NCBI GenBank assembly: GCA_035510575.1
Contig: DATKGV010000008.1
Coordinates: 68,618 to 132,617, forward strand
From: Minisyncoccota bacterium
GTDB lineage: Bacteria > Patescibacteriota > Minisyncoccia > Phycocordibacterales > UBA9973
Length of the DNA stretch: 64,000 nt
Direction: 5' to 3'
The notes under the pieces are model-generated. The model saw nothing but the letters and a program-made list of their open reading frames with translations, ran no database searches and was not told the origin of the DNA. Positions 1,799 through 62,449 of the stretch are shown here, in pieces (position 1 is the first letter of the stretch; each line of letters starts with the position of its first letter). The position numbers and the translations under genes were made by a program.

Positions 1799-1808
1799 TT
1801 AAAAAATT

Positions 1809-5971: not shown

Positions 5972-5982
5972 AATATAATATA

Positions 5983-7089
5983 ATGGATACAGAAACAGAA
6001 AAAATAATAGAGGAACAGTTAAAATCTTTACCTGAAGAGATAGTTGCCTTTTTTGCTGATCCAAAAACAAATGAGCAAATTTTAGAGATAGGAAAAACAG
6101 CTCAACTTAATGCTGAACAATTGGATATTTTTCAAATGGAAACTTCTTTATTGATACTAGGATTAGTTTATCCAAATGATTTTAAAGATGAACTAAAAAG
6201 CAAATTAAATATAAAAGAAGAAATTCTAAATAAGATAATAAAAGATATATATATATTTATATCAGATGAAAAAATAGAAAAACTTAAAGAAATATATAAA
6301 GAAGACAAGGAACAATTAGAACTTGATCCAAGATTTTCTGATTTATCAATAAACATACAACTAGCGATTGCAAGTTCAGATTGGCAAAACAAACTTTATG
6401 AAATAGCGACAAAAAATAAGCTGACAGTCGATAAAATGGCGCTTTTGGAAGATATCACAGTCAAAGTAATGTCAGGCAAAATTCCGCCGGATAAATATGA
6501 GGGCGAATTGGCAAGCGCTTTGACCGGGCTAGACAAGGATGATTTGAAGGAAATAGTCGCGGAGGTAAATGAAAATATTATGAAAGTTATCCGCGCCTTT
6601 GAGCAGGAACAAACAAAAGAACCAGAGGAAGACGAAGTTCCTCTTCCTCCATACAAGAAAGCGCCAGTAGAGAATTTGTCATTTAAAAATGAGGAAAGCA
6701 TATATGCGACTTCCGGAATTCAAATGATAAATGAAACGCCATCAAAAGAAAATATTAATGAGAAAGAAAAAATGACAATGAATGAAGATAAGGTTTTGGC
6801 AAAGCAAGGGATCGGTATGATAGAAGAAAAACCAGAAATTGAAAAAGAGCACTTGCTTCCAAATACTGAAACGCAAAAAAGCGTTCTTGAAGGCATAGAA
6901 AATCCGCCCAGCGTCGCTTCAAGCATCATAGGGAATAAATTAAGCGGTCCGACTGCGAGCATGAATAAAGTCAGCGATTATTCTCTGCCTAAAATAAGCA
7001 AAAAAGATGACGAAGCTGGTAAAATACCGAAGCCGCCTGAGGGATATACTTCTAAACTGCATGATCCATATCACGAAGAAGTAATATAA
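5983..7089 (+). CDS. acidic cytoplasmic hypothetical protein
   Basis: 368-aa ORF, Glu/Lys-rich, no TM segments; inside the T4SS-like cluster. Confidence 0.4.
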   Translation: MDTETEKIIEEQLKSLPEEIVAFFADPKTNEQILEIGKTAQLNAEQLDIFQMETSLLILGLVYPNDFKDELKSKLNIKEEILNKIIKDIYIFISDEKIEKLKEIYKEDKEQLELDPRFSDLSINIQLAIASSDWQNKLYEIATKNKLTVDKMALLEDITVKVMSGKIPPDKYEGELASALTGLDKDDLKEIVAEVNENIMKVIRAFEQEQTKEPEEDEVPLPPYKKAPVENLSFKNEESIYATSGIQMINETPSKENINEKEKMTMNEDKVLAKQGIGMIEEKPEIEKEHLLPNTETQKSVLEGIENPPSVASSIIGNKLSGPTASMNKVSDYSLPKISKKDDEAGKIPKPPEGYTSKLHDPYHEEVI

Positions 7090-45097: not shown

Positions 45098-45740
45098 ATA
45101 ATATAAGCTTGATGACCTTTATTATATCACATTTTTTTTGCAGATATCACGCTCTTAACTTTTGAACTATTTTATTTGAATGCAAAAGACATCAGCACGA
45201 TAGTCAAAGCGTTCAAAATTACCAACGCAAACACAAATGCTGTTTTTGAAGGCATTGCATTAGGGTTTATTAAAATATAGATTGTGTAGATTATTGCAAC
45301 AATCGCGGCACCGAGAAAGTTTCCTTTTATCATAGTTTTATAATTAGATAAGTTAATAAGACATTTGACCTTTAAAGATTATATCATTTCCTAACTGGCG
45401 GTGTACTCGGGTATGGTACCCAGAGGGTCAACCCTTGTAAGGGTATTCTAGCATATTCTCACTGCTGAAATTCAGCTTTGTGGGTCGCGGTCATAATTTC
45501 CGCAATGAGACACATGAGACACTTTTTTGGCTATTCCGCCGAGACTGTCTCGAGTGTCTCATCGCCATTTGAGCCAGATTTTTCAAGGGCTTCCTGCTCA
45601 ACTTGCATCATCAAGATGCTACAGAGCCGATCCACGAAGAATTGGCCGTCTGGCGTTTGCAGTACATTCTCGGGGGTTTGGTTGGTGGGCTTTTCCATAT
45701 AAGCCCACCATACCAAATCTCAAGATTTTTGGCACGCTCT

Positions 45741-46157
45741 CCTAATACTAGGTTTCTCTTTTTTCTCTTTCTTTTGTGTGTTAAATATTTTAACTACTTT
45801 TGGTTAAAATATTTAACCAGTTTCGGTAAAAAGATTTAACCAGTTAATTTCCTTTACCAGTTTTTCCACAGGCAATCTAGGGATTGCCCTAATACTTTGT
45901 TTCTCTTTGTTTCCTTTCTTTTGTTAGTTCGTCCCGCGTACCGATATCGGTACGTCGGACGAACCGAAAGTGGTTCGTCTGCTGAACCAGTTCGTTTGGC
46001 GAACTACTTTATCCACAGGTTCACCTAATACTTAGTTTCCTTTGTTTCTCTTTCTTTTGTGTGTCTAAATTTTAGACTACTTTCGGTCTAGTATTTAGAC
46101 CGATTTCGGTCAAGATTTTAGACTGGTCTACTACCTAGACTACTTTATCCCCGGGCT
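45741..46157. promoter_or_regulatory. three tandem ~140-bp modules, each carrying four N5-spaced inverted-repeat sites of a different specificity (GTTAA-N5-TTAAC; GTTCG-N5-CGAAC; GTCTA-N5-TAGAC); candidate operator/centromere (parS-like) or iteron array
   Basis: Modules start at 45741, 45887 and 46024, each with a conserved pyrimidine-rich header cctaatact.gtttc.cttt..tt.c.ttcttttgt. Module 1 sites include ggttaaaatatttaacc, module 2 ggttcgtctgctgaacc and agttcgtttggcgaact, module 3 ggtctagtatttagacc and gtctaaattttagac. Sites sit ~21-25 bp apart and each module ends tactttatcc. Confidence 0.7.
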
Positions 46158-46200: not shown

Positions 46201-46566
46201 ATGACAAAAGTCATATACATCACCGATATCACGCTCCACTCGAAGGACTTTCGCGCAACGCCTAGTCTCGAAAAAGCAGAGCAGAGGAAATTTGCAGGAC
46301 TGCCGTCACCGCGCTTCTATTCTGGTGCGACTAAACTCGACGCGGTCGTCGAGGGCGTGAATCCAGACGGCACGTTCGAGTTCACGATCGACCTGCCCGT
46401 CGATCTCCGCGAAGGATTAGATCGCGGCGAAATCGAGATCCGCTCGCTTCGCGCGGGAGGCATTCCAATCTACCCCGGCAAAGATCTCATTGAAAAAATG
46501 GCACAGCTAAAAAAGAAGGAACGTCGAGAGCTGATCCACCGCAGTCGAAAGTGGCAAGCAAAATAA
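46201..46566 (+). CDS. hypothetical protein (first gene of element)
   Basis: 121-aa ORF in GC-balanced codon usage immediately after the operator array. Confidence 0.4.
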   Translation: MTKVIYITDITLHSKDFRATPSLEKAEQRKFAGLPSPRFYSGATKLDAVVEGVNPDGTFEFTIDLPVDLREGLDRGEIEIRSLRAGGIPIYPGKDLIEKMAQLKKKERRELIHRSRKWQAK

Positions 46567-46667: not shown

Positions 46668-48011
46668 TTGATTTTTAAGTCTTCATCGCGAGGCGGGCTT
46701 TCTTATTTATTAGCGTTAATAGATAAGCAGATGCAAAAAACAACACTAGTGTGGCACACGGAGCAACGAAAAATCTCTGACCTCGTTCCAAGCTCCATCA
46801 ACCCTCGGACTATGAGTCCGAAGCAAATTGAAGACCTCAAGCAGAGTCTTCAAAAGTTCAATCTGGTCGAAATCCCCGTCATCGACACTAATAATAATTT
46901 AATCGCAGGACATCAGCGTCTGATGGTCATGAAGCTCCTCGGGCGTGGCGAGGAGGTTATTGACGTGCGCGTGCCGAGCCGGAAGCTATCCAAAAAAGAA
47001 TACGACGCGTACCTTCTTGCCTCGAACCGAATCCACGGCGACTGGGACTGGGCAAAACTCGCCGAGAACTTTGACCTCGAGCTTCTCCTTGAAAACGGAT
47101 TTGACGATAATGACCTCACCCACATCTGGGACGAGAATCTCACCGTTGAAGATGATGAATTTGATTTAGAAAAAGAACTCGAAAAAATCAAGACGCCGAA
47201 GACGAAATACGGCGACGCATACAAGCTCGGAAATCATTTCCTGTTCTGCGGCGACAGCGGGAATCTGGAGACGGTCAGACACACCGTGCACATCAAGAAC
47301 GTGGCGATGCTCTACTTCGACCCGCCGTACAACATCTCCCTCGACTACGACAAAGGCATCGGCGGCAAAAAACACTACGGTGGGAGTGTTAACGACAGCA
47401 AGCCGGACGATGAGTACAAGGAATTCCTGAAGGATATCATCACTAACGGCCTCCTGATTTCAAACATGGATACCCATGTTTTCGTCTGGTGCGACCAACG
47501 ATACATCGGACTCGTGCAGGAAATCTACGAGGAACTCGGCATCGACAGCAAGCGGGTGTGCCTGTGGATCAAGAACGGCGCGAATCCCACGCCAGGAGTC
47601 GCGTTCAACAAATGCTATGAGCCATGCGTGTACGGCGTGCGTGGCAAGCCGTACCTTTCCGACAAAGCACTCAACCTCACGGAGATTCTGAACAAGGAAA
47701 TCGGCAACGGTAACAAAGCCATCGACGACATGCTCGACATGTTGGATATCTGGCTCGTGAAGAGAGTCACAGGATCAGAGTATCAGCATCCAACGCAGAA
47801 GCCACCGAGCCTTCACGAGAAAGCATTGAGAAGATGCACCAAGCCTGGCGACATCGTTCTCGATCTCTTTGGCGGATCGGGATCAACGCTCATCGCGTGC
47901 GAACAATTGAATCGAAGATGCCACATGGTCGAAAAGGAACCAATATTCTGCGATGTCATCATCAACCGATATGAAAAACTCACCGGCACAAAAGCAATCA
48001 AGTTCAGTTAA
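46668..48011 (+). CDS. ParB-like nuclease domain fused to beta-class N6A/N4C DNA methyltransferase
   Basis: N-terminal ParB/Srx motif (NLIAGHQRLMVMKL); methyltransferase motif IV FDPPYN followed later by motif I (DLFGGSGSTLIACEQLNRRC), i.e. beta-class order. Confidence 0.7.
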   Translation: MIFKSSSRGGLSYLLALIDKQMQKTTLVWHTEQRKISDLVPSSINPRTMSPKQIEDLKQSLQKFNLVEIPVIDTNNNLIAGHQRLMVMKLLGRGEEVIDVRVPSRKLSKKEYDAYLLASNRIHGDWDWAKLAENFDLELLLENGFDDNDLTHIWDENLTVEDDEFDLEKELEKIKTPKTKYGDAYKLGNHFLFCGDSGNLETVRHTVHIKNVAMLYFDPPYNISLDYDKGIGGKKHYGGSVNDSKPDDEYKEFLKDIITNGLLISNMDTHVFVWCDQRYIGLVQEIYEELGIDSKRVCLWIKNGANPTPGVAFNKCYEPCVYGVRGKPYLSDKALNLTEILNKEIGNGNKAIDDMLDMLDIWLVKRVTGSEYQHPTQKPPSLHEKALRRCTKPGDIVLDLFGGSGSTLIACEQLNRRCHMVEKEPIFCDVIINRYEKLTGTKAIKFS

Positions 48012-48759
48012 GCAAGGTCAGGTCTGGCAGCTCGGCAGACACCGGCTGCTTGTCGGCGATGCGCTTGATTCCGAAGGCGTGAAGAAGCTTGTCGGCGCGG
48101 ACAAGATCAATTGCATCCTCACCGATGTGCCATACGGAATATCCTACACTGAGAGCAAAGAAAACTTTGCGAGCGTGAAGGTCAACAAGAAAATCCTGAA
48201 CGACAATATTTCGGATGAAACGCAGTATCAAAAATTCATGTCGGGGTGGATCAAGAATATCCTTCCGCACATGGCGAAGAAAAACAGCATCTACATCTTC
48301 AACTGCGACAAGATGCTGTTTGCGCTCAAGGCTTCGCTTGATGAATGCAAGATATATTTCTCTCAATTGCTGATTTGGGTGAAGAATCAAGCGGTCATCG
48401 GAAGAAAGGATTACCTGCCTCAGCACGAACTCATCGTCTTCGGATGGTTCGGCACGCATACGTTCAGAAGATCGAAAGACAAAAGCGTCCTCTTCTATCC
48501 TCGTCCCACAAAAAGCTCTCTCCACCCGACCATGAAGCCGATACCGCTTCTGCGGAATCTCATTCTCAACAGCACAAGCATCAACGACATCGTGTATGAC
48601 TGCTTCCTCGGTAGCGGTTCGACATTGATCGCGTGCGAGCAGACGCACCGCACCTGCCTCGGCGTCGAGCTTGATACCGAATACTGTCAGACCGTCATGG
48701 ATCGCTTCGAGAAGCTGATGAAAATCAAACCAAAATTATTGCATGAACAAAAACACTGA
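47953..48759 (+). CDS. beta-class DNA methyltransferase (paralog of the C-terminal half of the preceding gene)
   Basis: Motif IV variant ILTDVPYGISY, motif I DCFLGSGSTLIACEQTHRTC, C-terminal EKL(T/M)..K similarity to 46668..48011; overlaps it by 59 nt out of frame. Confidence 0.65.
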   Translation: MSSSTDMKNSPAQKQSSSVKQGQVWQLGRHRLLVGDALDSEGVKKLVGADKINCILTDVPYGISYTESKENFASVKVNKKILNDNISDETQYQKFMSGWIKNILPHMAKKNSIYIFNCDKMLFALKASLDECKIYFSQLLIWVKNQAVIGRKDYLPQHELIVFGWFGTHTFRRSKDKSVLFYPRPTKSSLHPTMKPIPLLRNLILNSTSINDIVYDCFLGSGSTLIACEQTHRTCLGVELDTEYCQTVMDRFEKLMKIKPKLLHEQKH

Positions 48760-49147
48760 AGAAAACAAGAATATGCTCTTGGAACAATTGCGGAAAACGC
48801 CGATCGTCCAGATCGCGTGCGAGAAGCTCGACATTTCCCGAGCCACTTTTTACCGGTGGAAATCCGAAGACGAGGAATTTGCTACGTTAGTTGATCAAGC
48901 AGTGAGTGAAGGACGATCACTCATTAATGATGTTGCAGAATCCCAGCTCATCGGCGCGGTCAAAGACCGGAACTTGGCGGCTATCATGTACTGGCTCAAG
49001 CACCACCATGGAGATTACAAGACCAAGGTGCAGATCGACGGCAGATTGGAAACGATACACGAGCTTTCAGTTGAGCAGAAGGCATTGGTCGAACAGGCAT
49101 TAAAGTTAGCAGGCATCACGCCCGAAGAAAACAATGAAGAATCCTAG
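48743..49147 (+). CDS. terminase small subunit-like HTH protein
   Basis: 134 aa with HTH LDISRATFYRWK and a conserved helical region (IMYWLKHHHGDYKTK), directly upstream of and overlapping the large terminase. Confidence 0.4.
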   Translation: MNKNTEENKNMLLEQLRKTPIVQIACEKLDISRATFYRWKSEDEEFATLVDQAVSEGRSLINDVAESQLIGAVKDRNLAAIMYWLKHHHGDYKTKVQIDGRLETIHELSVEQKALVEQALKLAGITPEENNEES

Positions 49148-50611: not shown

Positions 50612-53302
50612 TTACGCTTTTGAGAACAGTCGCACAATTTCTTCGAAATTCTTCGCTTTATTTTCTTCCCATTCCTCTTGTTTGATATACAGAGCTTCGT
50701 AGATCATTTTACTTTGCCTGTCATTCACATCCTTACACCACTTTTGCAAACGCTCAAACTTTATTTTGTCGTCCTCATCTTCTCTGCCTTTGGTCTCAAT
50801 GATGAAAACGGTCTTATCATTTTTTTTCACAAAGAAGTCAGGATAGTACGTGGCAATAAAGCCCTCGGAATTTTTATATTCAATTCGCAGAGCATTTGCT
50901 TCTTTGTTTTGGAAGTTTTTTGCATAAGAAATTATATCGTCGCACCGCTCAAGGAAATCGGCAAAAGTGAGCTCGAAATTACTATCGCCAACGATGCGAT
51001 TGAATACGGATTTTTTCGGGATCAAAAAAGATTTGTCATTTACAACGAATGGTCGCGCTTCACTTATCTTAATGTAGTTCTTTATTTCCGTATCACCACC
51101 ATCTTTTACTGTAAGCTCATTGATGGCTTTCTTGAACTCGTCCTTGATCAGCTTAATGTATTCGACTTCGGAGAGGTTCCGTAAGAGATTAAGATCGGAT
51201 AAATTGACAGCTCCCTCAAACATATAATTCTCCACGAAATCACGCACTTTACCGAATAAGATGTCGTAGCATCCGAAAAGTCGGAGCTCTCGCATTATCG
51301 CTTGGGCGAAGAAGCCTATGACGCTTTGATAGTTTGGCTCAATATCGCCAGTGAGAACAGTCGTATGGTGCGTCTTCTCATCTACAACGTCTTTAAACAC
51401 AATTTCGCGCTTCTCTTCCTCGGAAAATATTTTTATTTTTACTCGCTTACTACCAAACATTGAAACGTTAAGCTCTGATAGATTTTTATACTCTCTCTGT
51501 ATACGCGGACTCATGACAGGGATTTCAATATCGAGCTTTTCAATATCTTTTTTTGGGTTGTCCTTGTCCACTTCCACCACCATCGGCGTAATCGGCTTGG
51601 ATCCGCTACCCATCAGTCGCTTTTCAAGAAGTACACCCTCGCCTTTAATTGATTCAACAAAATCCATAAAGGCGGGAGTGCCGATGACACTTACATACTC
51701 ATCAACATCGTCTCTTCCGAAAAACATTCGTCGCAAGCCACGACCAAGCGTCTGTTCTGGCAATATCTTTGAGTCAGAGGCATATGGGCGAAGTCCCACG
51801 ATAGTTGTGACATTTTTCACATCCCATCCTTCTTTGAGCATCATCACAGAAATAATAACTTTGAATGGACTTTCCCAACTGTCGATGTCATTTGCTTGTT
51901 TTCGCAGGATTTCAAGTTCTTCCTTATTTTTTCCAGAGATGGTTTCAGAAATCTCACCACTTTTATTAGTATGAATTGTGAGGACTCCACCTTTTAGATC
52001 AGCGAAGCTCGTCTCAAGATATTGCGCTACTTCATCGCAGTTCTGAGTATCATCAGTCATTATGAACAATATAGATTTCTTACCTACAGGTTTGAGCGTC
52101 TCGTACGACTTCTTCCATTCTTCCACTCCAAGATTTATATAATCCCTGTATTTCTCACTGAACAGTGTGCTCTGGTTCGGCTTGAGTTTGCCACGGCTCG
52201 CTTCGTCCGGGACGACGGGATTTTTGACTATTCTCTGGTGTATTGCCTCAACAAGTGGATAGTCAGAAATCGTCTGTACGAAAATTGAGCCGTCCGTCTT
52301 CTTCGGTGTTGCAGTTACATCGAGTTGGAGCGACAACCCAGTACCTTTTTGTTTGAGGCGGTTGTCTATGTCTTGGATTGATTTGAACCAAGCGAGCTTC
52401 TCGTCGTGGATATGGTGTGCTTCGTCGTTAATGACGATCAACTCGTCTATATCTCGCACAATCATTCCCAAATCAACGGTAGAGTCATTCGTTTTCGTGA
52501 CAGGCTTTTCACCAAGGAAATACTGGGAAGCATCCTCGTCTTCTAGGGTTGCCTCTTTTGTGTCGCCTTCAAACACGCGATGGATATTTGTGAGGAATAT
52601 ATTACCTGTGTCTGAAATACCTCGCAGTGCATCTTGGAGGTGAAGTGTTACTTGAAAATCATCATGCCAGTTCTGTCCTCGATATCCATTATCAGGAAGT
52701 ACAGGATCTTCAAAAAATATGTTCAATCCTTCAAAATCTTTTTTTATTCGTTCAAAAACGATAACATTCGGAGTTATTAAAAGAAAGTTTTTTGCCAGCT
52801 TGGAGTCAGTTTCATAAAGTTTGTGAAAATACGCCCACGCGACGATCAAGCTCATAACTTTTGTCTTACCTGCCCCTGTCGCCATTTTTATCACGAAACG
52901 GAGCCAGTCCTCTGTGAACATTTGTGGAGAGAGTACGCCAGTCGAGTTGTATCTGATGAGATCGTATTTATCCTTTACTTGGGCAACCTCATAAAGCCAG
53001 ACAACTGTCTCCAGCGCTTCGCGCTGGGCGAAGTAGTATCGGAAATTATACGTAGTTCCATCTTTGTCAGCTAAAATATGTTCTTCTTTGAACCACCAGT
53101 TAAGCAATGCTATTGAAGTATCACTTGCTCCCTTGTAATTCTGGTCTCGCCACTCTTTTACTTTCTTTCGTAATTCCGCAACAAGAGGTGGAAGAAGTTT
53201 CTCATATCCTCGCTCGCGCAGATCCTCGGCAGCAGGAAACCACCGGATGCTCGGGTCGAGTATTTCAAATGGGTCTTTGGGAAAATCTTTATGTAGTGCC
53301 AT
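50612..53302 (-). CDS. res: Type III restriction endonuclease Res subunit (SF2 helicase + PD-ExK nuclease)
   Basis: Walker A TGAGKTKVMS, DEAH box VINDEAHH, helicase motif VI, C-terminal PD..ExK (YYPDFFV...IIETKG); lies immediately downstream of the mod gene on the same strand. Confidence 0.7.
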   Translation of the reverse strand: MALHKDFPKDPFEILDPSIRWFPAAEDLRERGYEKLLPPLVAELRKKVKEWRDQNYKGASDTSIALLNWWFKEEHILADKDGTTYNFRYYFAQREALETVVWLYEVAQVKDKYDLIRYNSTGVLSPQMFTEDWLRFVIKMATGAGKTKVMSLIVAWAYFHKLYETDSKLAKNFLLITPNVIVFERIKKDFEGLNIFFEDPVLPDNGYRGQNWHDDFQVTLHLQDALRGISDTGNIFLTNIHRVFEGDTKEATLEDEDASQYFLGEKPVTKTNDSTVDLGMIVRDIDELIVINDEAHHIHDEKLAWFKSIQDIDNRLKQKGTGLSLQLDVTATPKKTDGSIFVQTISDYPLVEAIHQRIVKNPVVPDEASRGKLKPNQSTLFSEKYRDYINLGVEEWKKSYETLKPVGKKSILFIMTDDTQNCDEVAQYLETSFADLKGGVLTIHTNKSGEISETISGKNKEELEILRKQANDIDSWESPFKVIISVMMLKEGWDVKNVTTIVGLRPYASDSKILPEQTLGRGLRRMFFGRDDVDEYVSVIGTPAFMDFVESIKGEGVLLEKRLMGSGSKPITPMVVEVDKDNPKKDIEKLDIEIPVMSPRIQREYKNLSELNVSMFGSKRVKIKIFSEEEKREIVFKDVVDEKTHHTTVLTGDIEPNYQSVIGFFAQAIMRELRLFGCYDILFGKVRDFVENYMFEGAVNLSDLNLLRNLSEVEYIKLIKDEFKKAINELTVKDGGDTEIKNYIKISEARPFVVNDKSFLIPKKSVFNRIVGDSNFELTFADFLERCDDIISYAKNFQNKEANALRIEYKNSEGFIATYYPDFFVKKNDKTVFIIETKGREDEDDKIKFERLQKWCKDVNDRQSKMIYEALYIKQEEWEENKAKNFEEIVRLFSKA

Positions 53303-53303
53303 A

Positions 53304-55562
53304 TTAAATTTTCACCTCGATTACTCGAGTGGTATCGTTACCAAAAATGTCTACGACCTTTACTGCAATGGTGTACGCTCCTTTTGGCATTTCTTTTTTT
53401 GCAGAAATGAGTTCAAGGTTCCTGTTCTTCTTAGTGCGAAAACTCTGCCATTCGTTATCAAAAATATAGTCTCCCGTCCATTCTTCTTTTTCTTCGCTGT
53501 CTTCTGTGAACTTTACGATTTCCTTTCGGCTTGTGAAATCAAAATCAACCGCCCAATAGTCAATCCAGTCACTCCACTTTTTTGTAAGCTGTTCAGGAGG
53601 ATTCACCATTCCATTCTTGTCGGTCGTGACTTTCCAAATCTGCCCTTTATCTACAACAATTTTAGTTTTACCTTTAGATCCGTTGATTTCCTCGATGACT
53701 GTATCGAGCTCGTCTTGTGAGTAGAAAACTGAGAAATCAGAAAGTTCGAGAGCAAGTTCTTTGATGCTTCCTTTGCCTGTTACAATAGGTTTGACCTCAA
53801 TGAAAGCAACATCGTAGAACTTGATTTGACCTTTTTCGACGGCGCGTTTGTCGAACACCTCGCGCGGGATGATTTTGAAAGATATATCCACGCCTTGTTC
53901 TTTGTACTCTTGAAAATCTATACCCATCTCGTAGTCGAAACCGAGTACATCCACTTTTGTAATCTGCTTTGATTTGCACTCTTTCACGATATCTTTTATG
54001 AGCTTATGTGAGACTGGATAATTTATAGGACCAACAGCAACGAGACGATCTCGCTTCTTACCGACAATATTCACGAACGATTCGACAGGCTCGGCTTTGT
54101 AAGCGGCGATGATGAGGCGAACAAACTCTTTTTCTTTTCGCTCTGCCTGTTTTGCTTTTTCTTCTGCTCGCAGATTATCGTTTATAGCAATATAGTTTTC
54201 ACGCTCGTATCTGCCAACGTTCAAAATTTCGAATGCTCGGAAATTCTTGCCCTCTTTTTTGAGTTCACGCTGTACTCCAATCATTCGCTTGCGAGAAGTA
54301 TGGACACCGAACTTGCCCAAATCGGATCCAATCCATTTTCTGCCGGACTTTTCTGCAACAGCCATTGTTGTACCCGAACCACAGAAAAAATCAGCGACAA
54401 GATTTCCTTCATCCGAAGACGCTTTGATCAAACGCTCTATGAGACTTTCGGGTTTCTGGGTTGGGTAATCAAGATTTTCTTTACTTATTGCTTGAATGTT
54501 GCTCGTAGTTTTATCTACAAATAAACTCTGTGCGGGAGTACCCTTGTTATCTTCTAAGTAATACTTGTAATGAATTGACTTATTTTTTGTAATAACAATT
54601 AAGTTATTTTTTATTGCTTCGTTTATTCTGTCTTGAGACCATCTCCAATGGTTTCCCTTGGGTGGAGCAATCAATTCACCATTGAAATATCTTGCCTCTC
54701 CAGATCCAGAAGCTGTCAGGGTGACCAATCTGTATTTTCTGCCGTCTCCGTCATCCAACTTGAAAAATGTATTTATGTAGTTTTCATCGGCTGGAGTATA
54801 TTGAGTATTAAAAATATAATTATCTGATTTGGTGTAGAACAAAATTGTGTCGTGTATATTTGCATACTTCGTATCAACATGCCCGTGCGGATTGCTTCTT
54901 TGCCAAATAATTTCATTCCTAAAATTATCTTTCCCAAAAATCTCATCCAAGACCAAACGCATATAACTATTTACTCTCCAATCACAATGCACATAAATAC
55001 TTCCGTCATCTGCGAGTAAGTCGCGCATCAATTTCAATCGCTCATAAATCATTGCGACAAAACTATCCGCACCCTTTCCCCAAGTATCACGATATGCGAT
55101 TTCTTCAATCACTGAAGGTTTTTTAGTAAACTGCTCCTCACCAATTTCTATATCCATCGAAAAATCCGCACCGACATCAAACGGAGGGTCTATGTAAATC
55201 AATTTAAGTCCGCCCTGTGCTTCAATTTCTTTTCGAAGCGGTCCGTTTTTGAGTGACGAAAGAATCAGTTTGTTATCGCCCCAGATGAGCTTGTTCGTCC
55301 AGCCCGTAACCTGTCTGCCAGTAGTATCAAAAAGTGAATCTTGCGCTCCGATCTTGCCTTCACTTCGAGGCTCATCGATTTGCTCGATTGCCTGAAACGG
55401 GAGGACAACATTTGTCACTTCGTTCGTTTTTCCATTCCAAAGAAGCTCGACCTCGCGGTCGTCTTTGAATAGTAAAAAACGATACTTGTCAGGGAGAGGT
55501 TTTCCTGCTTCCAAGTATTTTATTACATCTCTTTTTTCGTTATCTGAAAGATTTGATGACAT
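53304..55562 (-). CDS. mod: Type III R-M Mod subunit (N6-adenine DNA methyltransferase, beta class)
   Basis: Motif IV IYIDPPFDVGADF then motif I FFCGSGTTMAVAEKSGRKWIGSDL; 752 aa; 1-nt spacing to res. Confidence 0.7.
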   Translation of the reverse strand: MSSNLSDNEKRDVIKYLEAGKPLPDKYRFLLFKDDREVELLWNGKTNEVTNVVLPFQAIEQIDEPRSEGKIGAQDSLFDTTGRQVTGWTNKLIWGDNKLILSSLKNGPLRKEIEAQGGLKLIYIDPPFDVGADFSMDIEIGEEQFTKKPSVIEEIAYRDTWGKGADSFVAMIYERLKLMRDLLADDGSIYVHCDWRVNSYMRLVLDEIFGKDNFRNEIIWQRSNPHGHVDTKYANIHDTILFYTKSDNYIFNTQYTPADENYINTFFKLDDGDGRKYRLVTLTASGSGEARYFNGELIAPPKGNHWRWSQDRINEAIKNNLIVITKNKSIHYKYYLEDNKGTPAQSLFVDKTTSNIQAISKENLDYPTQKPESLIERLIKASSDEGNLVADFFCGSGTTMAVAEKSGRKWIGSDLGKFGVHTSRKRMIGVQRELKKEGKNFRAFEILNVGRYERENYIAINDNLRAEEKAKQAERKEKEFVRLIIAAYKAEPVESFVNIVGKKRDRLVAVGPINYPVSHKLIKDIVKECKSKQITKVDVLGFDYEMGIDFQEYKEQGVDISFKIIPREVFDKRAVEKGQIKFYDVAFIEVKPIVTGKGSIKELALELSDFSVFYSQDELDTVIEEINGSKGKTKIVVDKGQIWKVTTDKNGMVNPPEQLTKKWSDWIDYWAVDFDFTSRKEIVKFTEDSEEKEEWTGDYIFDNEWQSFRTKKNRNLELISAKKEMPKGAYTIAVKVVDIFGNDTTRVIEVKI

Positions 55563-56019: not shown

Positions 56020-56895
56020 ATGACAAAACACAAGTTCACATTTGCAGAATTACCAATAGGTCAGGTCGCCCGAGATCCGAATCAACCGAGAAAAGACTTC
56101 GGAGCCGAAGGCGAGAAAAACAAGTTAAAATTATCAATCAAGAACTACGGAATCGAGGAGCCGATTAAAGTAAGCGAAATATCAGACAAGCGCTTTATTA
56201 TTATTGACGGACATCGTCGCTTCATATGTGCCCAGAAGCTTGGCATGAAGACGGTGCCTTGTCGCATCTATCCCAAGATGACGGACGGCGAGTTCGAGAC
56301 GAGACGTTACGAAATGCAAAACAATCGTCGTGCATGGAATCCGCTTGAACGCTCTGAAGCATTGGAGCGAATCAAGTACTCGTATGGGTTCAAGAACAAC
56401 CACGAGCTTGCCGATTACCTTGGCATGAGCAGATCATCTGTACAACTCGCAATGCAAATGAGAAAGCAGAGAATATCGAACTTAACAATGATGGAGAGAT
56501 ATAATGTACCGAAAAGCGTCCGTATGTCGATGCTCAACATCTTCAAGAAGCTCCGTAAGATCAAGAAACTTGAAGTCGATGACATCATCGAAGTCATATT
56601 CGAGAAGATCGACAAGAAAGTGATTACAAAATCGCTCGACATCCGCAAGATTGGCAAAGCGTTCATGCAAGCGACGATTAATGAGGATGAGCTGTACCAG
56701 TTTTTGACGAAGCCCGATATGACAGCGAATGAGCTCGAACAGCGTACGCGCCAGACAGGATTCGCGCTCATGTGTGGAGATCTCATCAAGAAGATTACTC
56801 AGAAAAAAGAGAATGGAACATCGTATACCAAGAACGAAAAAGCCTCTCTCGTTCAACTCCAAGCCCTTATCAGGAAAACTATAAAAGTCGCATAA
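56020..56895 (+). CDS. ParB-like N-terminal domain protein
   Basis: ParB/Srx core FIIIDGHRRFICAQKLG with upstream EPIKVS segment; 291 aa. Confidence 0.6.
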   Translation: MTKHKFTFAELPIGQVARDPNQPRKDFGAEGEKNKLKLSIKNYGIEEPIKVSEISDKRFIIIDGHRRFICAQKLGMKTVPCRIYPKMTDGEFETRRYEMQNNRRAWNPLERSEALERIKYSYGFKNNHELADYLGMSRSSVQLAMQMRKQRISNLTMMERYNVPKSVRMSMLNIFKKLRKIKKLEVDDIIEVIFEKIDKKVITKSLDIRKIGKAFMQATINEDELYQFLTKPDMTANELEQRTRQTGFALMCGDLIKKITQKKENGTSYTKNEKASLVQLQALIRKTIKVA

Positions 56896-56899
56896 TACT

Positions 56900-58288
56900 A
56901 TGGCAATATCTGTACCCACAAACAAAAAAGCCGTAGCGTATTATCGTCATTCTGCAAAAGATAAACAAGAAAATTCAGTTGCCATCCAACAAGGACATAC
57001 TCAAGCATTTGCCGCAACTCACAAAATAGAGATTATTCACGAAGAAGCAGATGAGGGTGAAAGCGGACTATCGGCCGATCGACCCGGATATCAGCGATTA
57101 TTCGATGAATGGATAACAAACCCCCTCGCCCCCGCCTTTGACTACGTCTTCGTATACGATGTCTCCCGTTGGGGACGATTTCAGGACCAAGACGAGGCGG
57201 CGCATTATGAATATCTTTGTAAGCAGCACGGTAAGAAAGTTGTTTACGTTTCGCAGGGCTTTCCTAAAGAAGATGAACAACTCATCTCCACACTTCAAAC
57301 ATCAATCGGTCGATACATGGCCGCCGAGTACTCGCGCCAGTTAAGCGGTAAAGTCTGGCACGGATGCGTCAAAGTTTCAGAGCAAGGATTTTCTGCCGGA
57401 GGACAGCCTCCATATGGGATGAGCCGATTACTTCTTGGCGAAGACAAGAAGCCAGTAAAGAAACTCAAACGAGGTCAATGGAAATCCATATCAAACGAGC
57501 GCGTCACATTCGCCCCTGCCGACGACGGAACAGCGGAGATAGTCAAAGACATGTATTCAATGCTCGTCGAGAAATGGGAATCGCCCCAGTCGATCGCCGA
57601 CATATTGAACGAGCGAGGCATTCCGACAGTGCAGGGTAAGAAATGGAAATCAAGCGGGGTGCTCAATATCCTCACTAACGAGGTATATACAGGAACCCGA
57701 ATTTACAACAAGACTTGGGGTCGATTGAAGCAAAAACATCGTGCTAATCCACGAAGCGAGTGGGTTATTCAGCCAAATGCGTTTGAAGGAATCATATCGT
57801 CTGAAATATTCAACGCCGCGCAAGACCGTCTGTACTGGCTCATGCCAAGCAAATGGCAAAAGGGCGCATACACGGTGCGAAAAGCGCGGCGTGGACTGCA
57901 AGCCGAAATCACGACCTTGCTCATGAGCAAAGGAATGGAAATCGACGACGCGGACATGGCGGTACGGAAATTGCCCATGGCGATCGGCGCACGGTTCACC
58001 GTCGAGGGTGTAGCCAACTGGTGCTTCACAGTGAAAGAATATATGAAGAATTATGACTACATCATCGGCGTAAGCGTCGCAACAGATCGGCATGATCCTG
58101 TTGATAGGTTCTTCTGGATTCCCATCAGCACATTTGACGGCACGGACTATGTGGTATTCTCGGAGAAAGATGACTGCTATCACACTTCGAGTATTCCGAG
58201 TGGCGAGGTTCAGAAAAGGATTCTGTCCTTGTTGCCTGATCTTAAATTATTTAGCGATTTACCTATAATAATTCCGCCAACAGAATAA
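56900..58288 (+). CDS. large serine recombinase (resolvase N-terminal catalytic domain + recombinase domain)
   Basis: N-terminal KAVAYYRHSAKDKQ (catalytic Ser context), ...VFVYDVSRWGR, recombinase domain (PYGMSRLLLGEDKKP); 462 aa. Confidence 0.7.
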   Translation: MAISVPTNKKAVAYYRHSAKDKQENSVAIQQGHTQAFAATHKIEIIHEEADEGESGLSADRPGYQRLFDEWITNPLAPAFDYVFVYDVSRWGRFQDQDEAAHYEYLCKQHGKKVVYVSQGFPKEDEQLISTLQTSIGRYMAAEYSRQLSGKVWHGCVKVSEQGFSAGGQPPYGMSRLLLGEDKKPVKKLKRGQWKSISNERVTFAPADDGTAEIVKDMYSMLVEKWESPQSIADILNERGIPTVQGKKWKSSGVLNILTNEVYTGTRIYNKTWGRLKQKHRANPRSEWVIQPNAFEGIISSEIFNAAQDRLYWLMPSKWQKGAYTVRKARRGLQAEITTLLMSKGMEIDDADMAVRKLPMAIGARFTVEGVANWCFTVKEYMKNYDYIIGVSVATDRHDPVDRFFWIPISTFDGTDYVVFSEKDDCYHTSSIPSGEVQKRILSLLPDLKLFSDLPIIIPPTE

Positions 58289-58344: not shown

Positions 58345-58668
58345 GTGGACGACATAGAAGCGGTCATTAAGACCAGCCAGCATTTCAAATATGAGGACGA
58401 AGAATCAGATGTAAAATACGCCTTCAATCGTATTTCTGATTTGCCGGAATCTAAATCTAAGTTGAAACGAGCGATTAAAGATCGGATTCGTTTACTTTGC
58501 GCGTCGTATATCTCGCTCGCGTCATTCATTCCTGACGAGGATGCTGAATATTTGATCGGCTTGCACGGCGAGCAGAAGAAAAAACGATCAATCAAAATAA
58601 TGATGCGGATGATGAAAGAGATGGATAAGCTTGAAAAAGAAATCCGTAATTTTGATCCGTTTTCTTAA
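58345..58668 (+). CDS. hypothetical protein
   Basis: 107-aa ORF between recombinase and DGR target. Confidence 0.3.
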   Translation: MDDIEAVIKTSQHFKYEDEESDVKYAFNRISDLPESKSKLKRAIKDRIRLLCASYISLASFIPDEDAEYLIGLHGEQKKKRSIKIMMRMMKEMDKLEKEIRNFDPFS

Positions 58669-58765: not shown

Positions 58766-60607
58766 CTAAGATTCAGACTTGCGGAGACGGAAAGCGAACT
58801 CACTGTCCGGATGCCACTCGAGGCCGGGCGTCGCCCAATAGTTGTCCAGCCACAAACCGTCACCGTCGCGCACGAGGCGGAAGACGAACGGGTAGCCGCC
58901 AGAGTCAGCGATTTGTTTCATTCCAATACGCACCCATTCATTTAGAGGTTGATTCCTGTATTTAAGGCGATAGTTAGGGCCAGTATCAGGAGGACACAAT
59001 TCCAAGCCGAGCGTTTGTGCGCGTTCGTAAATTTGGTCAGTGGTAGCACTTGTTTTGAAACCAAGGTCAGCAACAGTAAGGCGGATAAGTGTTGCTTCTT
59101 CACGCTTTTTACCTGGAATGAAGTCACGATTCTTCATCATAGATTTTGCGTAGTCGGAAATATTGATGTGGGCTGCTTCCATTTCAGCAATCAATTGTTC
59201 GGCCGTCTTTCCACCTATCTCGACATTTTCTCTGCGAATTTTCTTGTCTGGGAACGAGGTGTATACATGCTCAAGACCTTCTGGCAATCTTTGGAAGATG
59301 CCTGGCTCAAGCTGTCCAACATACGCCTTTGTATCTTTTGTTATCTGGCTTGGAACGTGAGCAATTTCTTCCTTAGTACATGCAAAAATAACAAGCATGT
59401 CTTCCTCTGTATTTCTGCCAGCGCGAAGCTCGGCAATACGCGGATCGGTTTGGTATCCGAAACCTTCGATGGACGAGTTAATTTCATAGAGAAATACAAG
59501 ATCATCTTTGGTAAATGGTTCTTCTTGTTCGCGCTTTTGATCAAGAGCAGTCAGTATTTTCATGTCTCCACTTTTCTTTCGGTACGCATCTGCTTCGGTT
59601 CCGAAATCTTGGAGTTTTTCATCAAGTGCTTCCTGCATGATTGGTTCTACGCCTTGGTGCGGAAGAATACCACGCACTTCGCCAATTCTATTGTCACCCT
59701 CCATACGGATCGCAAGACGAGGTTGGGTTGGTTCGCCGTTTGAATCATTCGTGTAATAAACATAAAAGTCGCCATTCTCTATTTGTGTTTCTGCTGTCGA
59801 TTTACCGGCAGTACACCAACCAGTTCCTTTTCCTTCGAGTGATTCAAAAAGTTGCTCGGCGTCACCGCTTTGTCCCTGTTGGTATTTTTTCCATTCACCT
59901 TTGACCTCCTCACGGTTCTCCATTGAGGCAGCAAGAGATTTTGAGATGAGTTCAGCGTATAAGCTCGGAAACTTTTGAGAAAAAGCTTCGCGCACCTCTG
60001 GTTCTTTGAGATTTTTGTTATCTTCTTTTACTTTGAAATATATGTCGGCAATTTGCGCGAGTGGTTCGCGATAGATATCGGGATATGGTGCAACAGTACT
60101 ATCGGTACGCTTTTTGAACTCGCCACGCTCTTTGTCGAATTGGGAAAGTTTGGTGATATTTTTCCAAACAAAGTATTTGAACCATGCAGGATACATGGCA
60201 TCGTCTGAAGTAAGGTACTCCATCCACGCATTAAGCGATGCTCGCTGGTCTTCGATGGCAACATCCATCATTTGTTCACGGACATTGTCAGGGATTTCCT
60301 CTACTGCTTGTCCACGCTCGCGAGCGATGCGCTTTTGCAGTTCAAAATATGATTCAGGAAAATTCTCCTTTTTTATAATGAATGCGTCATATATTTTGTC
60401 GCGAAACATTTCGAGATTGCGTTCACGTTTCTTTTCATCAGGATTGAGAAAAACATTCTCCAAACGATCCATATAGGCTTCGATACGCTCGGAAGGATCA
60501 TTCGGCATTTTTTCGCCAGTCTGTCGCTCTTCTCGCACAACGGCTCGATTTACCTCGGGAGAAGTTTGAAGTTCCGGGCTTTTCATGTGGAGCGGGTGCT
60601 TTTCCAT
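58766..60607 (-). CDS. DGR target protein: 613-aa cytoplasmic protein with C-terminal variable region (CLec-like ...GLWLDNYWATPGLEWHPDSEFAFRLR)
   Basis: The last ~42 codons, immediately before the stop, form the VR matching the TR at 60902-61029; no signal peptide or TM; the N-terminal ~570 aa have no recognised domain. Confidence 0.7.
   Translation of the reverse strand: MEKHPLHMKSPELQTSPEVNRAVVREERQTGEKMPNDPSERIEAYMDRLENVFLNPDEKKRERNLEMFRDKIYDAFIIKKENFPESYFELQKRIARERGQAVEEIPDNVREQMMDVAIEDQRASLNAWMEYLTSDDAMYPAWFKYFVWKNITKLSQFDKERGEFKKRTDSTVAPYPDIYREPLAQIADIYFKVKEDNKNLKEPEVREAFSQKFPSLYAELISKSLAASMENREEVKGEWKKYQQGQSGDAEQLFESLEGKGTGWCTAGKSTAETQIENGDFYVYYTNDSNGEPTQPRLAIRMEGDNRIGEVRGILPHQGVEPIMQEALDEKLQDFGTEADAYRKKSGDMKILTALDQKREQEEPFTKDDLVFLYEINSSIEGFGYQTDPRIAELRAGRNTEEDMLVIFACTKEEIAHVPSQITKDTKAYVGQLEPGIFQRLPEGLEHVYTSFPDKKIRRENVEIGGKTAEQLIAEMEAAHINISDYAKSMMKNRDFIPGKKREEATLIRLTVADLGFKTSATTDQIYERAQTLGLELCPPDTGPNYRLKYRNQPLNEWVRIGMKQIADSGGYPFVFRLVRDGDGLWLDNYWATPGLEWHPDSEFAFRLRKSES
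58782..58909 (-). repeat. DGR variable repeat (VR)
   Basis: Its reverse complement aligns over 128 nt with TR (60902-61029). There are 21 mismatches, all at TR adenine positions (e.g. TR aac/VR ttc, aac/cgc, gaa/gtg, aat/tat, aaa/acg), and the flanks are identical. Confidence 0.8.
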
Positions 60608-60895
60608 ATATGGTTCGCATTATAGCATAAATTACTGCGAAATAAAGAGGTTTTTGGTATACTATTTTCAGATTGGTTTCATTGAACGGCTACGGTTTTT
60701 CAAGACCAATTTACTTCGTGTAGATTGAGAGCGCGAACGGTTATGGCTTTTCGCGGAGGATGTACATAGAGGTCTTTAAAAAGAAAAAACTTGGTGCGAC
60801 GCGCTGGTTGATTTTCGATCACGCATAACAATACAGCACGGCTTCTGGCACATTTATGTGCGCCTAAGTCGGCGGTGACATGGATGGCGTGCCGC

Positions 60896-61029
60896 ACAAA
60901 CGCTGACTCTGACGGCAACCCGAACGTCTTCAACCTCGAACGCAACGATGACGGTTTGTGGCTGAACAACAATTGGGCGAAACCCGACAACGAGTGGAAT
61001 CCGGACAATAAGTTCGCTTTCCGTCTCCG
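60896..61029 (+). repeat. DGR template repeat (TR)
   Basis: Adenine-rich (many AAC/AAT codons) copy of VR, lying between the target gene and avd/RT; it is followed at 61044-61075 by the hairpin ccgcgac...gtcgcgg and a T-run. Confidence 0.8.
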
Positions 61030-61057
61030 AAACTATTTTCTTTTCCGCGACCTCATG

Positions 61058-61465
61058 TTACATGTCGCGGTTTTTCTTTTCAGGGTTGGCAAGATTCTTC
61101 TTCCAGCCACCAAACATCTTGCCGACTTCTTCGAGTTTCAATGCCACGTTCTCGCAGTGAGCGTTTGAAATAAGCTTGCCCTCCCATGCAACAGAGACAA
61201 GAAACTTTAGTGTGTCCAACACCAAAATGCATTCAGTAATTTTTTCCTCTTTCTTCTCTTTTTCGATAAAATATGCGATGTATGACAATTCAAGCAGATC
61301 GAGAAACTTGTTCTCAATCCGTGAGCCGATTGTATAGCGTGCGCCTTTAGCAATATGCGGAACAATATTAACCCAAATCAAATACCCCTCTTTGATCTTG
61401 TTGAGGATCGAAGCGTTGTTGGTGTGCGAAAGTCGGGGGGGGGGGAGATTTGTCGCTCGGTTCAT
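61058..61465 (-). CDS. avd: Avd-like accessory variability determinant (four-helix-bundle protein); 5' end uncertain
   Basis: IVPHIAKGARYTIGSRIENKFLDLLELSYIAYF...ITECILVLDTLKFLVSVAWEGKLISNAHCENVALKLEEVGKMFGGWKKN matches the helix and length pattern of Bordetella phage bAvd; the annotated N-terminal 10 aa cross a C11 homopolymer. Confidence 0.6.
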   Translation of the reverse strand: MNRATNLPPPRLSHTNNASILNKIKEGYLIWVNIVPHIAKGARYTIGSRIENKFLDLLELSYIAYFIEKEKKEEKITECILVLDTLKFLVSVAWEGKLISNAHCENVALKLEEVGKMFGGWKKNLANPEKKNRDM

Positions 61466-62449
61466 ATCTACAATAATATCATTTCTGTGGAAAACTTACT
61501 CGTCGCATGGCGAGAATTCCTTCATGGAAAACGGAGCCGTAAAGACGTTGCCCAATTTTCAGTTCATCTGACCGATAATATACTTGCCCTCCATCGCGAA
61601 CTCGTCGATAAGACCTACCATCACGGTCTGTACAAAGCTTTTCGTATCAACGATCCCAAACCGCGTGATATTCATAAGGCGAGTGTTCGCGATCGGTTAC
61701 TTCACCATGCTATTTATAGGATTTTGTATCCCTACTTTGATCCTAAGTTTATTTTTGATTCGTATTCATGTCGGCGTGGTAAAGGCACGCACCGCGCGCT
61801 TGATAGATTTCGAGACTATGCCCGCAAAGTTTCTAAAAATCATACTCAGACAGTGTGGGTCTTGAAATGCGATATCAGAAAGTTTTTTGCAAACATTGAT
61901 CACACAATTTTAGAAGATATTTTGAAGCGTCGCATGGGAGACGAAGATGTCATTCAACTTTTTCGAGAAATTGTTGGCAGTTTTAATACCAAAGACAAGG
62001 ATGGTGTAGGATTACCTCTCGGTAATCTCACTAGCCAGCTTTTGGTAAATATTTATATGAACGAGTTTGATCATTTTCTCAAACGAGATTTGAAAGTTGA
62101 ATATTGCGTTAGGTACGCGGACGATTTTGTTATTCTGCACACAGACAAAAAATATTTAGAAAACGTCTTGCCAAAAATATCTGCATTTTTAGAAACAAGA
62201 CTCAAGCTATCCCTTCATCCTGATAAGGTGTTTATAAAAACATTCGCCTCGGGCGTAGACTTTCTTGGTTGGGTACATTTTCCACATCATCGTGTGCCGA
62301 GGACATCCACGAAAAAGAGAATGTTCAGAAATTTAAATCAAAACTCAAAAAAGGAATCACTAAGTTCCTACGCAGGGCTTCTGAGTCATGGCGATACACA
62401 TGAATTACGAGAGACAATATTTAAGAAGTATTCTGATAAGAAAATCTGA
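61355..62449 (+). CDS. DGR reverse transcriptase; 5' end uncertain (probably begins after the G11 tract, near 61455)
   Basis: RT motifs: ENLLVAWREFLHGKR (start of DGR RT core), motif 4 GLPLGNLTSQLLVNIY with the DGR-specific SQ, motif 5 VRYADDFVIL (YADD), ~330-aa core size. Confidence 0.8.
   Translation: MRNNINPNQIPLFDLVEDRSVVGVRKSGGGEICRSVHIYNNIISVENLLVAWREFLHGKRSRKDVAQFSVHLTDNILALHRELVDKTYHHGLYKAFRINDPKPRDIHKASVRDRLLHHAIYRILYPYFDPKFIFDSYSCRRGKGTHRALDRFRDYARKVSKNHTQTVWVLKCDIRKFFANIDHTILEDILKRRMGDEDVIQLFREIVGSFNTKDKDGVGLPLGNLTSQLLVNIYMNEFDHFLKRDLKVEYCVRYADDFVILHTDKKYLENVLPKISAFLETRLKLSLHPDKVFIKTFASGVDFLGWVHFPHHRVPRTSTKKRMFRNLNQNSKKESLSSYAGLLSHGDTHELRETIFKKYSDKKI

Follow-up and report, generated by a model that had tools for sequence, protein, structure and literature searches.

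We analysed a 64-kb stretch of DNA (hereafter the window) from contig DATKGV010000008.1 of the Minisyncoccota bacterium assembly GCA_035510575.1 (Patescibacteriota). Our subject was an array of palindromic sites in the interval 45741-46157, which lies near the left end of an island carrying ParB-domain, DNA methyltransferase, terminase and serine recombinase genes. Unit by unit, this array resembles the replication origin of phage lambda, and the question addressed here is what such origins, apart from any initiator gene, could be doing on a bacterial island.

Anatomy of the array

The interval is occupied by three head-to-tail modules (M1, M2 and M3; Table 1) of ~135 bp each, which aligned without gaps and with a mean column identity of 74%. 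Every module consists of a 39-nt header, four 15-bp sites of the form GTnnn-N5-nnnAC and a 15-nt tail, and the start-to-start distances between consecutive sites were 23, 23 and 17 bp in all three. The header (CCTAATACTnnGTTTC...CTTTCTTTTGT) was 69-72% A+T and 79-82% pyrimidine on the + strand across the three modules. What differs is the half-site word, which is GTTAA in M1, GTTCG in M2 and GTCTA in M3. Six of the 12 sites were perfect 5-N5-5 palindromes, among them site 4 of M3, and the remaining six had one mismatch each; sites 1 and 2 of M2 jointly formed a 38-bp palindrome, site 2 of M2 harbours an odd GTACG half-site and site 3 of M3 has GTCAA. The tails carry DnaA-box-like nonamers, and that of M2 is a perfect copy of TTATCCACA, the bacterial DnaA-box consensus, and the sole perfect match to it within the 64 kb. 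A word-independent pattern of the whole architecture (four GT-N11-AC sites at the observed spacing plus NNNTTTNTCC) matched three times in the window against 0.00 expected from 100 shuffles, and a pattern of the header also matched three times, against 0.45 expected.

A preliminary description of this interval had recognised three aligned modules with a common pyrimidine-rich header and four N5-spaced inverted repeats, and had proposed arrays of dimer-type palindromic sites on one conserved scaffold, re-tooled for a different word in each module. The gap-free alignment and the pattern counts bore this out, the three words could be read directly as claimed, and the putative dimer-type organisation stood as well. 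Some of the measurements had to be amended: the inverted repeats do have 5-bp spacers, as described, but all are 15 bp rather than 15-17 bp long, the spacing given as ~21-25 bp is actually 23/23/17, and the ending tactttatcc is present in M2 and M3 but not in M1, which terminates in cagtttttcc.

Kinship with ori-lambda and with phage initiator genes

In ori-lambda, as annotated in NC_001416, four 18-bp dyad iterons lie within the O gene, start to start at 20, 24 and 23 bp, and are followed, on the O sense strand, by GACACAAAAGACACTATTACAAAAGAAAAAAGAAAAGATT; this block is 74% A+T and 70% purine. Read on the O sense strand, a window module runs from TGTGGATAAAGTA through the four dyad sites to GACACACAAAAGAAAGAGAAACAAAGGAAAC..., and the junction between iterons and block carries GACAC...ACAAAAGA in ori-lambda and in the module alike. 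Two hallmarks of such origins, namely four dyad sites at a spacing of about two helical turns and an A+T-rich, strand-biased region adjoining the iterons at 3' as read on the O sense strand, were thus found in the window modules. The location of the origin inside the initiator gene was not found in the window, where the frame is broken by in-frame stops and no N-domain adjoins it, but was found in ~75 phage loci described below. Because order, spacing, strand bias and position in the gene match, each module can be classed, by its sequence, as a lambda-type replication origin. The preliminary description had not recognised the arrangement among described plasmid or phage partition systems; a single module does in fact have the architecture of ori-lambda, and the lambda-type iteron origin with type-specific initiators is textbook knowledge.

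The likeness to lambdoid origins extends to the four dyad sites about two turns apart with an adjacent ~40-bp block, A+T-rich and purine-rich on the O strand, to the placement of the phage copies in the initiator gene right after the N-terminal DNA-binding domain, and to the joint variation of initiator and iteron specificity (PMC6022878; PMC7466680). The differences are that the window copies are detached from an initiator gene, non-coding and arranged as three tandem specificities, that half-sites are 5 bp here against 6-7 bp, that each module terminates in a DnaA-box-like nonamer, and that most cognate initiators are of only ~180 aa.

The preliminary description had also proposed to search related contigs for the scaffold, and this was productive: the architecture pattern matched in 16 IMG/VR contigs, 35 contigs of GTDB species genomes and 57 metagenome contigs, amounting to more than 100 public loci, with other words too. 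Nearly all the named genome records with the scaffold were Patescibacteria (Saccharibacteria, Paceibacteria, Taylor- and Nomurabacteria), the one exception being a metagenome-assembled genome (MAG) labelled Gammaproteobacteria. A 14-base header pattern scanned over the viral collection gave no more than single chance matches, and nothing related was found around the array on comparison with deposited phage genomes. A module profile run over all the matching loci divided them into two classes, class A, with an O-like gene, and class B, orphan.

Class A comprised ~75 loci, each with a single module and with an O-like N-terminal domain directly beside the tail (Pfam Phage_rep_O, E 7e-10; PHROG 'replication initiation O-like', E 2e-19); searching solved structures with the sequence of the O-like protein gave no match. 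In these loci the module lies inside the initiator reading frame, directly 3' of the N-domain and on the strand opposite to the module + strand, so defined that the header is purine-rich on the O-encoding strand. The module is translated as ...VDKVVNLVDQSRRLTKSGLKNRPKSVYLVDTQNQGNKEKPSI..., and the frame was open in 55 of the 55 distinct class A modules. The carriers are tailed phages, in which portal and head protease/capsid genes come after TerL, and which also have Sak4-like, RusA-like and integrase genes. Several of the phage half-sites deviate from the palindrome precisely where a perfect one would put TAG or TAA in the O frame, as in GTC AAC CTA GTA GAC, which stands in place of GTC TAG... 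When the window modules were translated in the phage frame, the product resembled the phage linker peptide, interrupted by stops. In the phage copies a second TTATCCACAGG was observed ~15 nt upstream of the header, after a GC-rich hairpin (for example L121:9140-9186, L123:7660-7711), and two DnaA-box-like elements therefore flank the phage origin. The tandem layout in the window mimics this flanking, in that neighbouring modules share DnaA-box-like elements.

The coding state of the phage copies bears on whether the modules could be structured non-coding RNAs, with four small hairpins each, or target sites of the element's methyltransferases. Module folds were indeed more stable than those of shuffled sequences (z -2.1 to -5.3), and the island has three methylase genes. 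The stability was, however, equal on both strands, as for palindromic DNA, the header remained unpaired and the array had no match in Rfam; moreover, all four hairpins of a module share one word and change together, which is explained by protein recognition and not by folding, and the same sequence is protein-coding in phages. Methylation had been named as the alternative in the preliminary description; nothing observed hinted at it, and three words and an N5 gap do not resemble the site of a single enzyme. Both possibilities appear scarcely credible to us.

To relate word and initiator, 53 distinct class A N-domains were aligned and grouped by the dominant half-site of their own origin. Origins with GTCTA went with a predicted recognition helix GLSR-Q-[SA]V, those with GTTAA with GLSR-P-[AS]V, those with GTTCA with GLAR-A-SV, and those with the rare word GTTCG (L175 and L189) with GIAR-S-SV. 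Alignment column 84, the residue after [SA]R, was in 1:1 correspondence with the word (Q=GTCTA, P=GTTAA, A=GTTCA, S=GTTCG); it held all the word information and was invariant inside each class. The sharpest word signal falls in the helix-turn-helix (HTH), as contact would predict. A GLVR-A helix was seen to accompany GTCCA-containing origins (L161, L203 and L204). All three window words were present in phage origins with a cognate initiator, and the odd GTACG half-site of M2 site 2 also occurs in the origins of L175 and L189. At E<=1e-10 the family of O-like initiators comprised 834 clusters, mostly of 175-190 aa, and the best 120 of the 834 included 40 with the helix class SRP, 29 SRQ, 30 ARA, 4 ARS and 3 VRA. 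No O-like gene from the MAG to which the window belongs (locus tag prefix VMR49) was found among those best 120, most of which had no names, which makes this result uninformative.

This co-variation also bears on a reading close to that of the preliminary description, in which the palindromes would serve as centromeres, operators or immunity sites, bound by ParB-like or HTH proteins of the element itself, and paralogous binders would be encoded at other places on it. The island does encode two ParB-domain proteins and an HTH, and palindromes phased by two turns are typical of dimeric binders generally. Words and scaffold nevertheless belong to phage origins and track the O-like helix, and the proteins that co-vary with the words are the O-like initiators of phages, none of which is encoded in the window. 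In addition, ParB291 was undetected in the other orphan-array loci from the pattern scans, there is one ParB-methylase per island against two or three words per array, no ParA was found among the island open reading frames (ORFs) scanned, no parS-like site was found in the window with up to three mismatches, and the model of p121, the first gene downstream of the array (pLDDT 75), had no match among PDB folds (E>3) and is not a winged helix. We hold this reading to be very improbable. Of the options originally listed, partition and immunity sites were thus not sustained, nor was the tie to the two ParB-domain proteins, and that of iterons for replication was retained. Hidden binders among the small proteins of the island were considered too and set aside: p121 had no fold match, the 55-aa ORF no family match and p107 an all-helical model (pLDDT 68).

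Orphan modules and the islands that carry them

Class B comprised 27 loci and the window, with one to three non-coding modules each and no O-like domain; none of the 16 viral contigs fell in this class, compared with 12 of the 35 genome matches and 15 of the 57 metagenome matches. Stops were present in every O-strand frame of the 22 distinct four-site class B modules (22/22). Conservation of the header was 1.50 bits per position in class A vs 1.52 in class B, that of the half-sites ~1.36 vs ~1.39 and that of the tail 1.79 vs 1.45, whereas the N5 spacers were free in both (0.61 vs 0.46 bits). The share of perfect palindromes was 56% in class A against 73% in class B. Because header and tail are conserved and palindromes are more perfect despite the stops, the whole orphan origin, that is, the putative unwinding block, the iterons and the DnaA-box-like end, is maintained by selection at the DNA level. 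The same comparison can be set against the idea that the modules are inert relics, pieces of O genes left to decay after prophages degraded or recombined. Descent from coding copies is clear, stops are found in all orphan copies and certain phage-type half-sites have been retained: the GTACG of M2 and the GTCAA at site 3 of M3, which looks like a vestige of coding ancestry because in coding copies GTCAA avoids an in-frame TAG. On the other hand, the orphan copies have diverged from one another (island proteins are only 45-58% identical), and yet drift is confined to the N5 spacers, with header, half-sites and tail conserved; the orphan palindromes are more perfect than the coding ones, and no dominant word is repeated in the arrays compared. 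We therefore find inert relics highly improbable.

The absence of repeated words was observed in 18 distinct two- or three-module arrays, none of which used a dominant word twice; the combinations were GTTAA with GTCTA, GTTAA with GTTCA, and GTTAA+GTTCG+GTCTA. Ancestry common to the arrays weakens any statistic of non-redundancy. When positions outside the sites were used to ask about independent capture of each module, the nearest phage module was of the same word in 10 of 22 cases, not clearly above chance. Two assemblies contained both classes: the MAG UBA5187 has two class A loci, of the GTTAA and GTTCA classes, together with a class B array of GTCTA+GTTAA, and in assembly JACCDG01 the island L169, with its three words, is accompanied by class A origins for each of them, the rare GTTCG included. 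These co-occurrences are anecdotal and not statistically meaningful.

All the class B loci from the pattern scans carry one diverged gene set related to the window island (identity ~57% for ParB::MTase, ~47% for TerL and up to 74% for the recombinase), in the order ParB::MTase, MTase, TerS, TerL, variable genes, p107 and serine recombinase. The variable genes include restriction systems, a NERD nuclease and retroelements, and in some loci ordinary-looking genes. In the window and in the related islands examined the genes after TerL are non-phage; the window has no portal, capsid or tail gene after the terminase, and its stretch from 45.4 to 64 kb showed neither a portal nor a capsid gene. The island ORFs that were scanned included no member of an initiator, primase or helicase family, nor was any O-like domain detected by tblastn and six-frame profile hidden Markov models in the 64-kb window or in any orphan-array locus (best E 0.13). 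TerL of several related islands was seen to be ~700 aa long, with a ~210-aa C-terminal extension (L174:304-2400, L200:611-2710, L202:3347-5482) that is absent in the 490-aa TerL of the window.

Arrays occupy three intergenic slots in this gene set: between p107 and the recombinase, between the second methylase and TerS, and upstream of p121 (window, L169, L198 and L220). Orthologues of the second serine recombinase of the window directly adjoin an orphan array in many related loci. These positions, always intergenic and directly upstream of operon starts (p121-ParB::MTase, TerS-TerL, serine recombinase), are what would be expected of an infection sensor, in which binding of an initiator at the array would turn on the terminase operon or the recombinase and no replication would start from the array. 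The orientation of the array relative to the downstream gene differs by slot, however, no sigma-70-like promoter was found within the array (promoter rules being uncertain for these bacteria) and the conserved unwinding-type header would be left unexplained, for which reasons we consider a sensor improbable.

Table 1. Position of the array, its parts and the neighbouring island features in the window.
Feature	Position	Strand	Remarks
Left island junction (approximate)	45396		Homology to related island L169 begins; host genes leftward
55-aa ORF	45531-45698	-	Transcribed away from array; no family match
M1	45741-45872	+	
M1 header	45741-45779	+	A+T-rich, pyrimidine-rich; candidate DNA-unwinding element
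M1 iterons	45780-45794, 45803-45817, 45826-45840, 45843-45857		GTTAA/TTAAC
M1 tail	45858-45872	+	CAGTTTTTCCACAGG; DnaA-box-like TTTTCCACA at 45862-45870
M2	45888-46019	+	
M2 header	45888-45926	+	Candidate unwinding element
M2 iterons	45927-45941, 45950-45964, 45973-45987, 45990-46004		GTTCG/CGAAC
M2 tail	46005-46019	+	TACTTTATCCACAGG; perfect DnaA-box consensus TTATCCACA at 46009-46017
M3	46024-46155	+	
M3 header	46024-46062	+	Candidate unwinding element
M3 iterons	46063-46077, 46086-46100, 46109-46123, 46126-46140		GTCTA/TAGAC
M3 tail	46141-46155	+	TACTTTATCCCCGGG; degenerate DnaA-box-like TTATCCCCG
p121	46201-46566	+	First gene downstream of array; no family match
ParB-domain::N6/N4 DNA methyltransferase fusion	46668-48011	+	
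Second N6/N4 DNA methyltransferase	47953-48759	+	
Small terminase-like protein (TerS)	48743-49147	+	
Large terminase (TerL), 490 aa	49134-50606	+	Portal/capsid gene does not come next
Type III restriction-modification pair	50612-55562	-	ResIII helicase-nuclease (896 aa) and N6/N4 methylase (752 aa)
ParB_N+HTH protein	56020-56895	+	
Serine recombinase	56900-58288	+	
p107	58345-58668	+	Model pLDDT 68, all-helical
Variable repeat	58779-58916		Inverted, 138 bp, 84% identical; 3' end of 613-aa gene 58766-60607
Template repeat	60896-61032		Diversity-generating retroelement
bAvd-like gene	61058-61465	-	Part of diversity-generating retroelement
Reverse transcriptase	61355-62449		Part of diversity-generating retroelement
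Second large serine recombinase	62524-63867	+	Reaches window end

To the left of ~45.1 kb the window is ordinary chromosome (PBP1, PolA, a PilB-type ATPase, Fpg and two tRNAs), and the left junction of the island was placed at 45396 because homology to L169 begins there. The 55-aa ORF is kept beside the array in L169, L198 and L220. Its 3' end is overlapped by an inverted repeat (45502-45565) with 20-nt arms, GCAATGAGACACATGAGACA and TGTCTCGAGTGTCTCATCGC, and a tandem ATGAGACAC inside; the same motif was seen at the equivalent place in L198, and a role as terminator, recombinase site or regulator site is conceivable. The first gene on the other side, p121, has 11 homologues; the two with NCBI names were labelled Paceibacterota/Parcubacteria, and an identical p121 carries the NCBI label Candidatus Paceibacterota. 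The type III restriction-modification (R-M) pair sits between TerL and the ParB_N+HTH gene, and relatives have other cargo there. A diversity-generating retroelement was noted at 58766-62449; where this island occurs in other assemblies, the contigs are interrupted at its repeats. Beyond the right end of the window, identical proteins on other contigs add 2 kb with one 696-aa gene. In the host part, a TraG/VirD4-like P-loop protein was observed at 8308-10143, among large ORFs without family match (8-7089); it may belong to a further region with a mobile or secretion-related character, separate from the array.

Possible roles of the orphan origins

The anatomy and the family of the modules are solid: the comparison shows their homology and architecture, their orphan state, purifying selection on every part of the origin, the co-variation of word and helix, and no initiator gene in the part covered. 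As to the function of the orphan array, which we infer by an entirely comparative route, from binding of O-like proteins through action in trans to replication of the island, the reading that we prefer, and to which we give about an even chance of being right, is that the modules are orphan origins fired in trans by the initiators of several types of helper phage, which would copy the island. The four dyad iterons would receive the winged-helix N-domain of a lambda-O-like initiator, with the variable 3-bp core of the half-site matched to its recognition helix, and the three window origins would each serve one initiator specificity class (GTTAA, GTTCG and GTCTA). When a matching phage infects or is induced, its initiator would bind the cognate orphan origin in trans and open the adjacent header, and the island would be replicated at the expense of the phage; TerS and TerL of the island could subsequently package the amplified island. 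The outcome would be piracy in the style of a satellite, with a bunch of keys fitting several helpers. It is already known that oriλ is located within O and that lambda O can act in trans (PMC6022878). More tentatively, and with somewhat less than an even chance, we propose an initiator-less lineage of Patescibacteria islands with complete tandem orphan origins, each matched to another specificity class of lambda-O-like initiators; such islands would be amplified by whichever helper class arrives and then probably packaged by means of their own terminase.

Several observations weigh against firing in trans. The right end of the island lies outside the window, and an initiator gene further on is possible for the window copy. 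Most phage O-like proteins are only ~180 aa long (N-domain plus linker; some are of 304 aa) and have no recognisable C-terminal domain, and recruitment of the helicase by the ~180-aa forms is unexplained. Origin and N-domain share a gene, so that common descent contributes to the co-variation of helix and word, which may in part be due to this linkage and not to contact. Some modules are hybrids of GTTAA-type and GTTCA-type sites (L133:5051-5183, L156:2837-2969, L162:1328-1459), and L198:780-1080 has headerless clusters in which GTTAA, GTTCA and GTCTA/GTCTG sites are adjacent, each followed by a DnaA-box-like tail; hybrids and clusters would fit a collection of binding sites better than complete origins. 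CysRS and GluRS genes (L200:2715-5830) or PEP-synthase-like genes (L174:2406-5797) stand between TerL and the p107-array-recombinase part, and because such ordinary-looking genes intervene it is uncertain whether the whole gene set is a single mobile unit. Finally, no origin modules were found in L228, L230 and L235, distant relatives reached through p121 and p107, for which reason the array is regarded as an accessory feature of a PICI-like island family whose members may persist without it. In these relatives a LexA/CI-type S24 repressor gene lies beside the p121-MTase-TerS-TerL operon (divergent from it in L230), and the cargo includes Thoeris ThsB_TIR, SMODS+S_4TM, an MmeI-like enzyme with DEAD helicase and T5orf172, Pycsar cyclase+PycTM and a serine recombinase.

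The headerless mixed-word clusters of L198 suit a pure binding-site role, such as that of a decoy or of handcuffing, in which orphan iterons would capture the initiators of incoming phages, or pair with phage origins to which initiator is bound, and block phage replication, making the island a defence or exclusion determinant against three phage classes. The logic of binding in trans and the non-redundant words are the same as for origins fired in trans, and the islands carry defence cargo, the type III R-M pair in the window and Thoeris ThsB, SMODS/S_4TM, the MmeI-like enzyme and Pycsar in relatives. Extra iteron arrays such as P1 incA, made of initiator-binding repeats away from the initiator gene, inhibit replication in trans. 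Likewise, plasmids with oop and the ori-lambda iterons ITN3-4 silence replication of rep-lambda phages (PMC3349717). That inhibition phenotype is independent of the A+T-rich part (PMC3349717), which is conserved here although dispensable there, and both header and DnaA-box-like tail are kept in the non-coding orphans, with the bit scores given above. Besides, four sites per class on a single-copy chromosome would be a weak sink unless the locus were amplified, which restores the reading as origins fired in trans. We thus judge a decoy unlikely, though it is the strongest of the rival readings.

Among known systems, orphan origins fired in trans have a close parallel in the oriT mimics of the pWBG749 family: on non-conjugative Staphylococcus aureus plasmids, orphan oriT copies come in twos or threes and usually differ in subtype (PMC4652767, PMC8136818), and this non-redundancy has been read as selection for mobilisation by several helpers (PMC4652767). 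In both cases orphan cis sites copy those of a diverged helper family, would be used in trans and come in several subtypes per replicon; the mimics are, however, transfer origins for a relaxase and a ribbon-helix-helix accessory protein, while those in the window are vegetative phage origins of putative function. As far as it is visible, the window island resembles phage satellites (PICI/SaPI, PLE, P4 and PICMI) in being a small integrated element with a recombinase, its own TerS, no capsid genes and defence cargo in relatives. Described satellites have their own origin and their own initiator or primase, including the minimalist PICMI, which encodes a primase, and PLE (PMC10803314, PMC7145576), whereas the window island shows no initiator, carries helper-type origins and encodes TerL, and its satellite behaviour is putative. 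Plasmid iteron control loci and the lambda 'inhibition phenotype' fragment are also initiator-binding repeats that act in trans, apart from the initiator gene (PMC3349717), but they are bare iterons for their own initiator with a negative effect, in contrast to modules with an unwinding-type region and a DnaA-box-like element that would serve the initiators of other elements. A parallel from eukaryotes emphasises the principle only in part, the setting being single-stranded DNA and rolling-circle replication with one specificity per molecule. There, geminivirus DNA-B components and some satellites share the Rep iterons of their helper and are replicated in trans. Our literature search turned up no tandem, non-redundant orphan origins on an initiator-less island, nor any description of phage-satellite-like elements in the Candidate Phyla Radiation (CPR).

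For annotation, the module is a precise marker for the origins of CPR phages, and intergenic palindrome arrays beside ParB genes are not necessarily centromeres. The co-variation of words and helices offers a recognition code for the 834-cluster initiator family, in which the helix residue Q, P, A or S pairs with the 3-bp core of the half-site; the code is directly testable, and although the hosts are hard to grow, proteins and 135-bp DNAs can be synthesised. If the orphan origins do fire in trans, islands would have a new way to exploit phages, by carrying only the landing pads of their helpers, and of several kinds; the window island would be the first element of phage-satellite type to pirate its replication through helper-type cis sites and nothing else, and a replication counterpart of oriT mimicry. 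It would then be possible to predict from sequence alone which phages mobilise, or are blocked by, which islands, and phage-satellite-like parasitism, or origin-based exclusion, would extend to the CPR.

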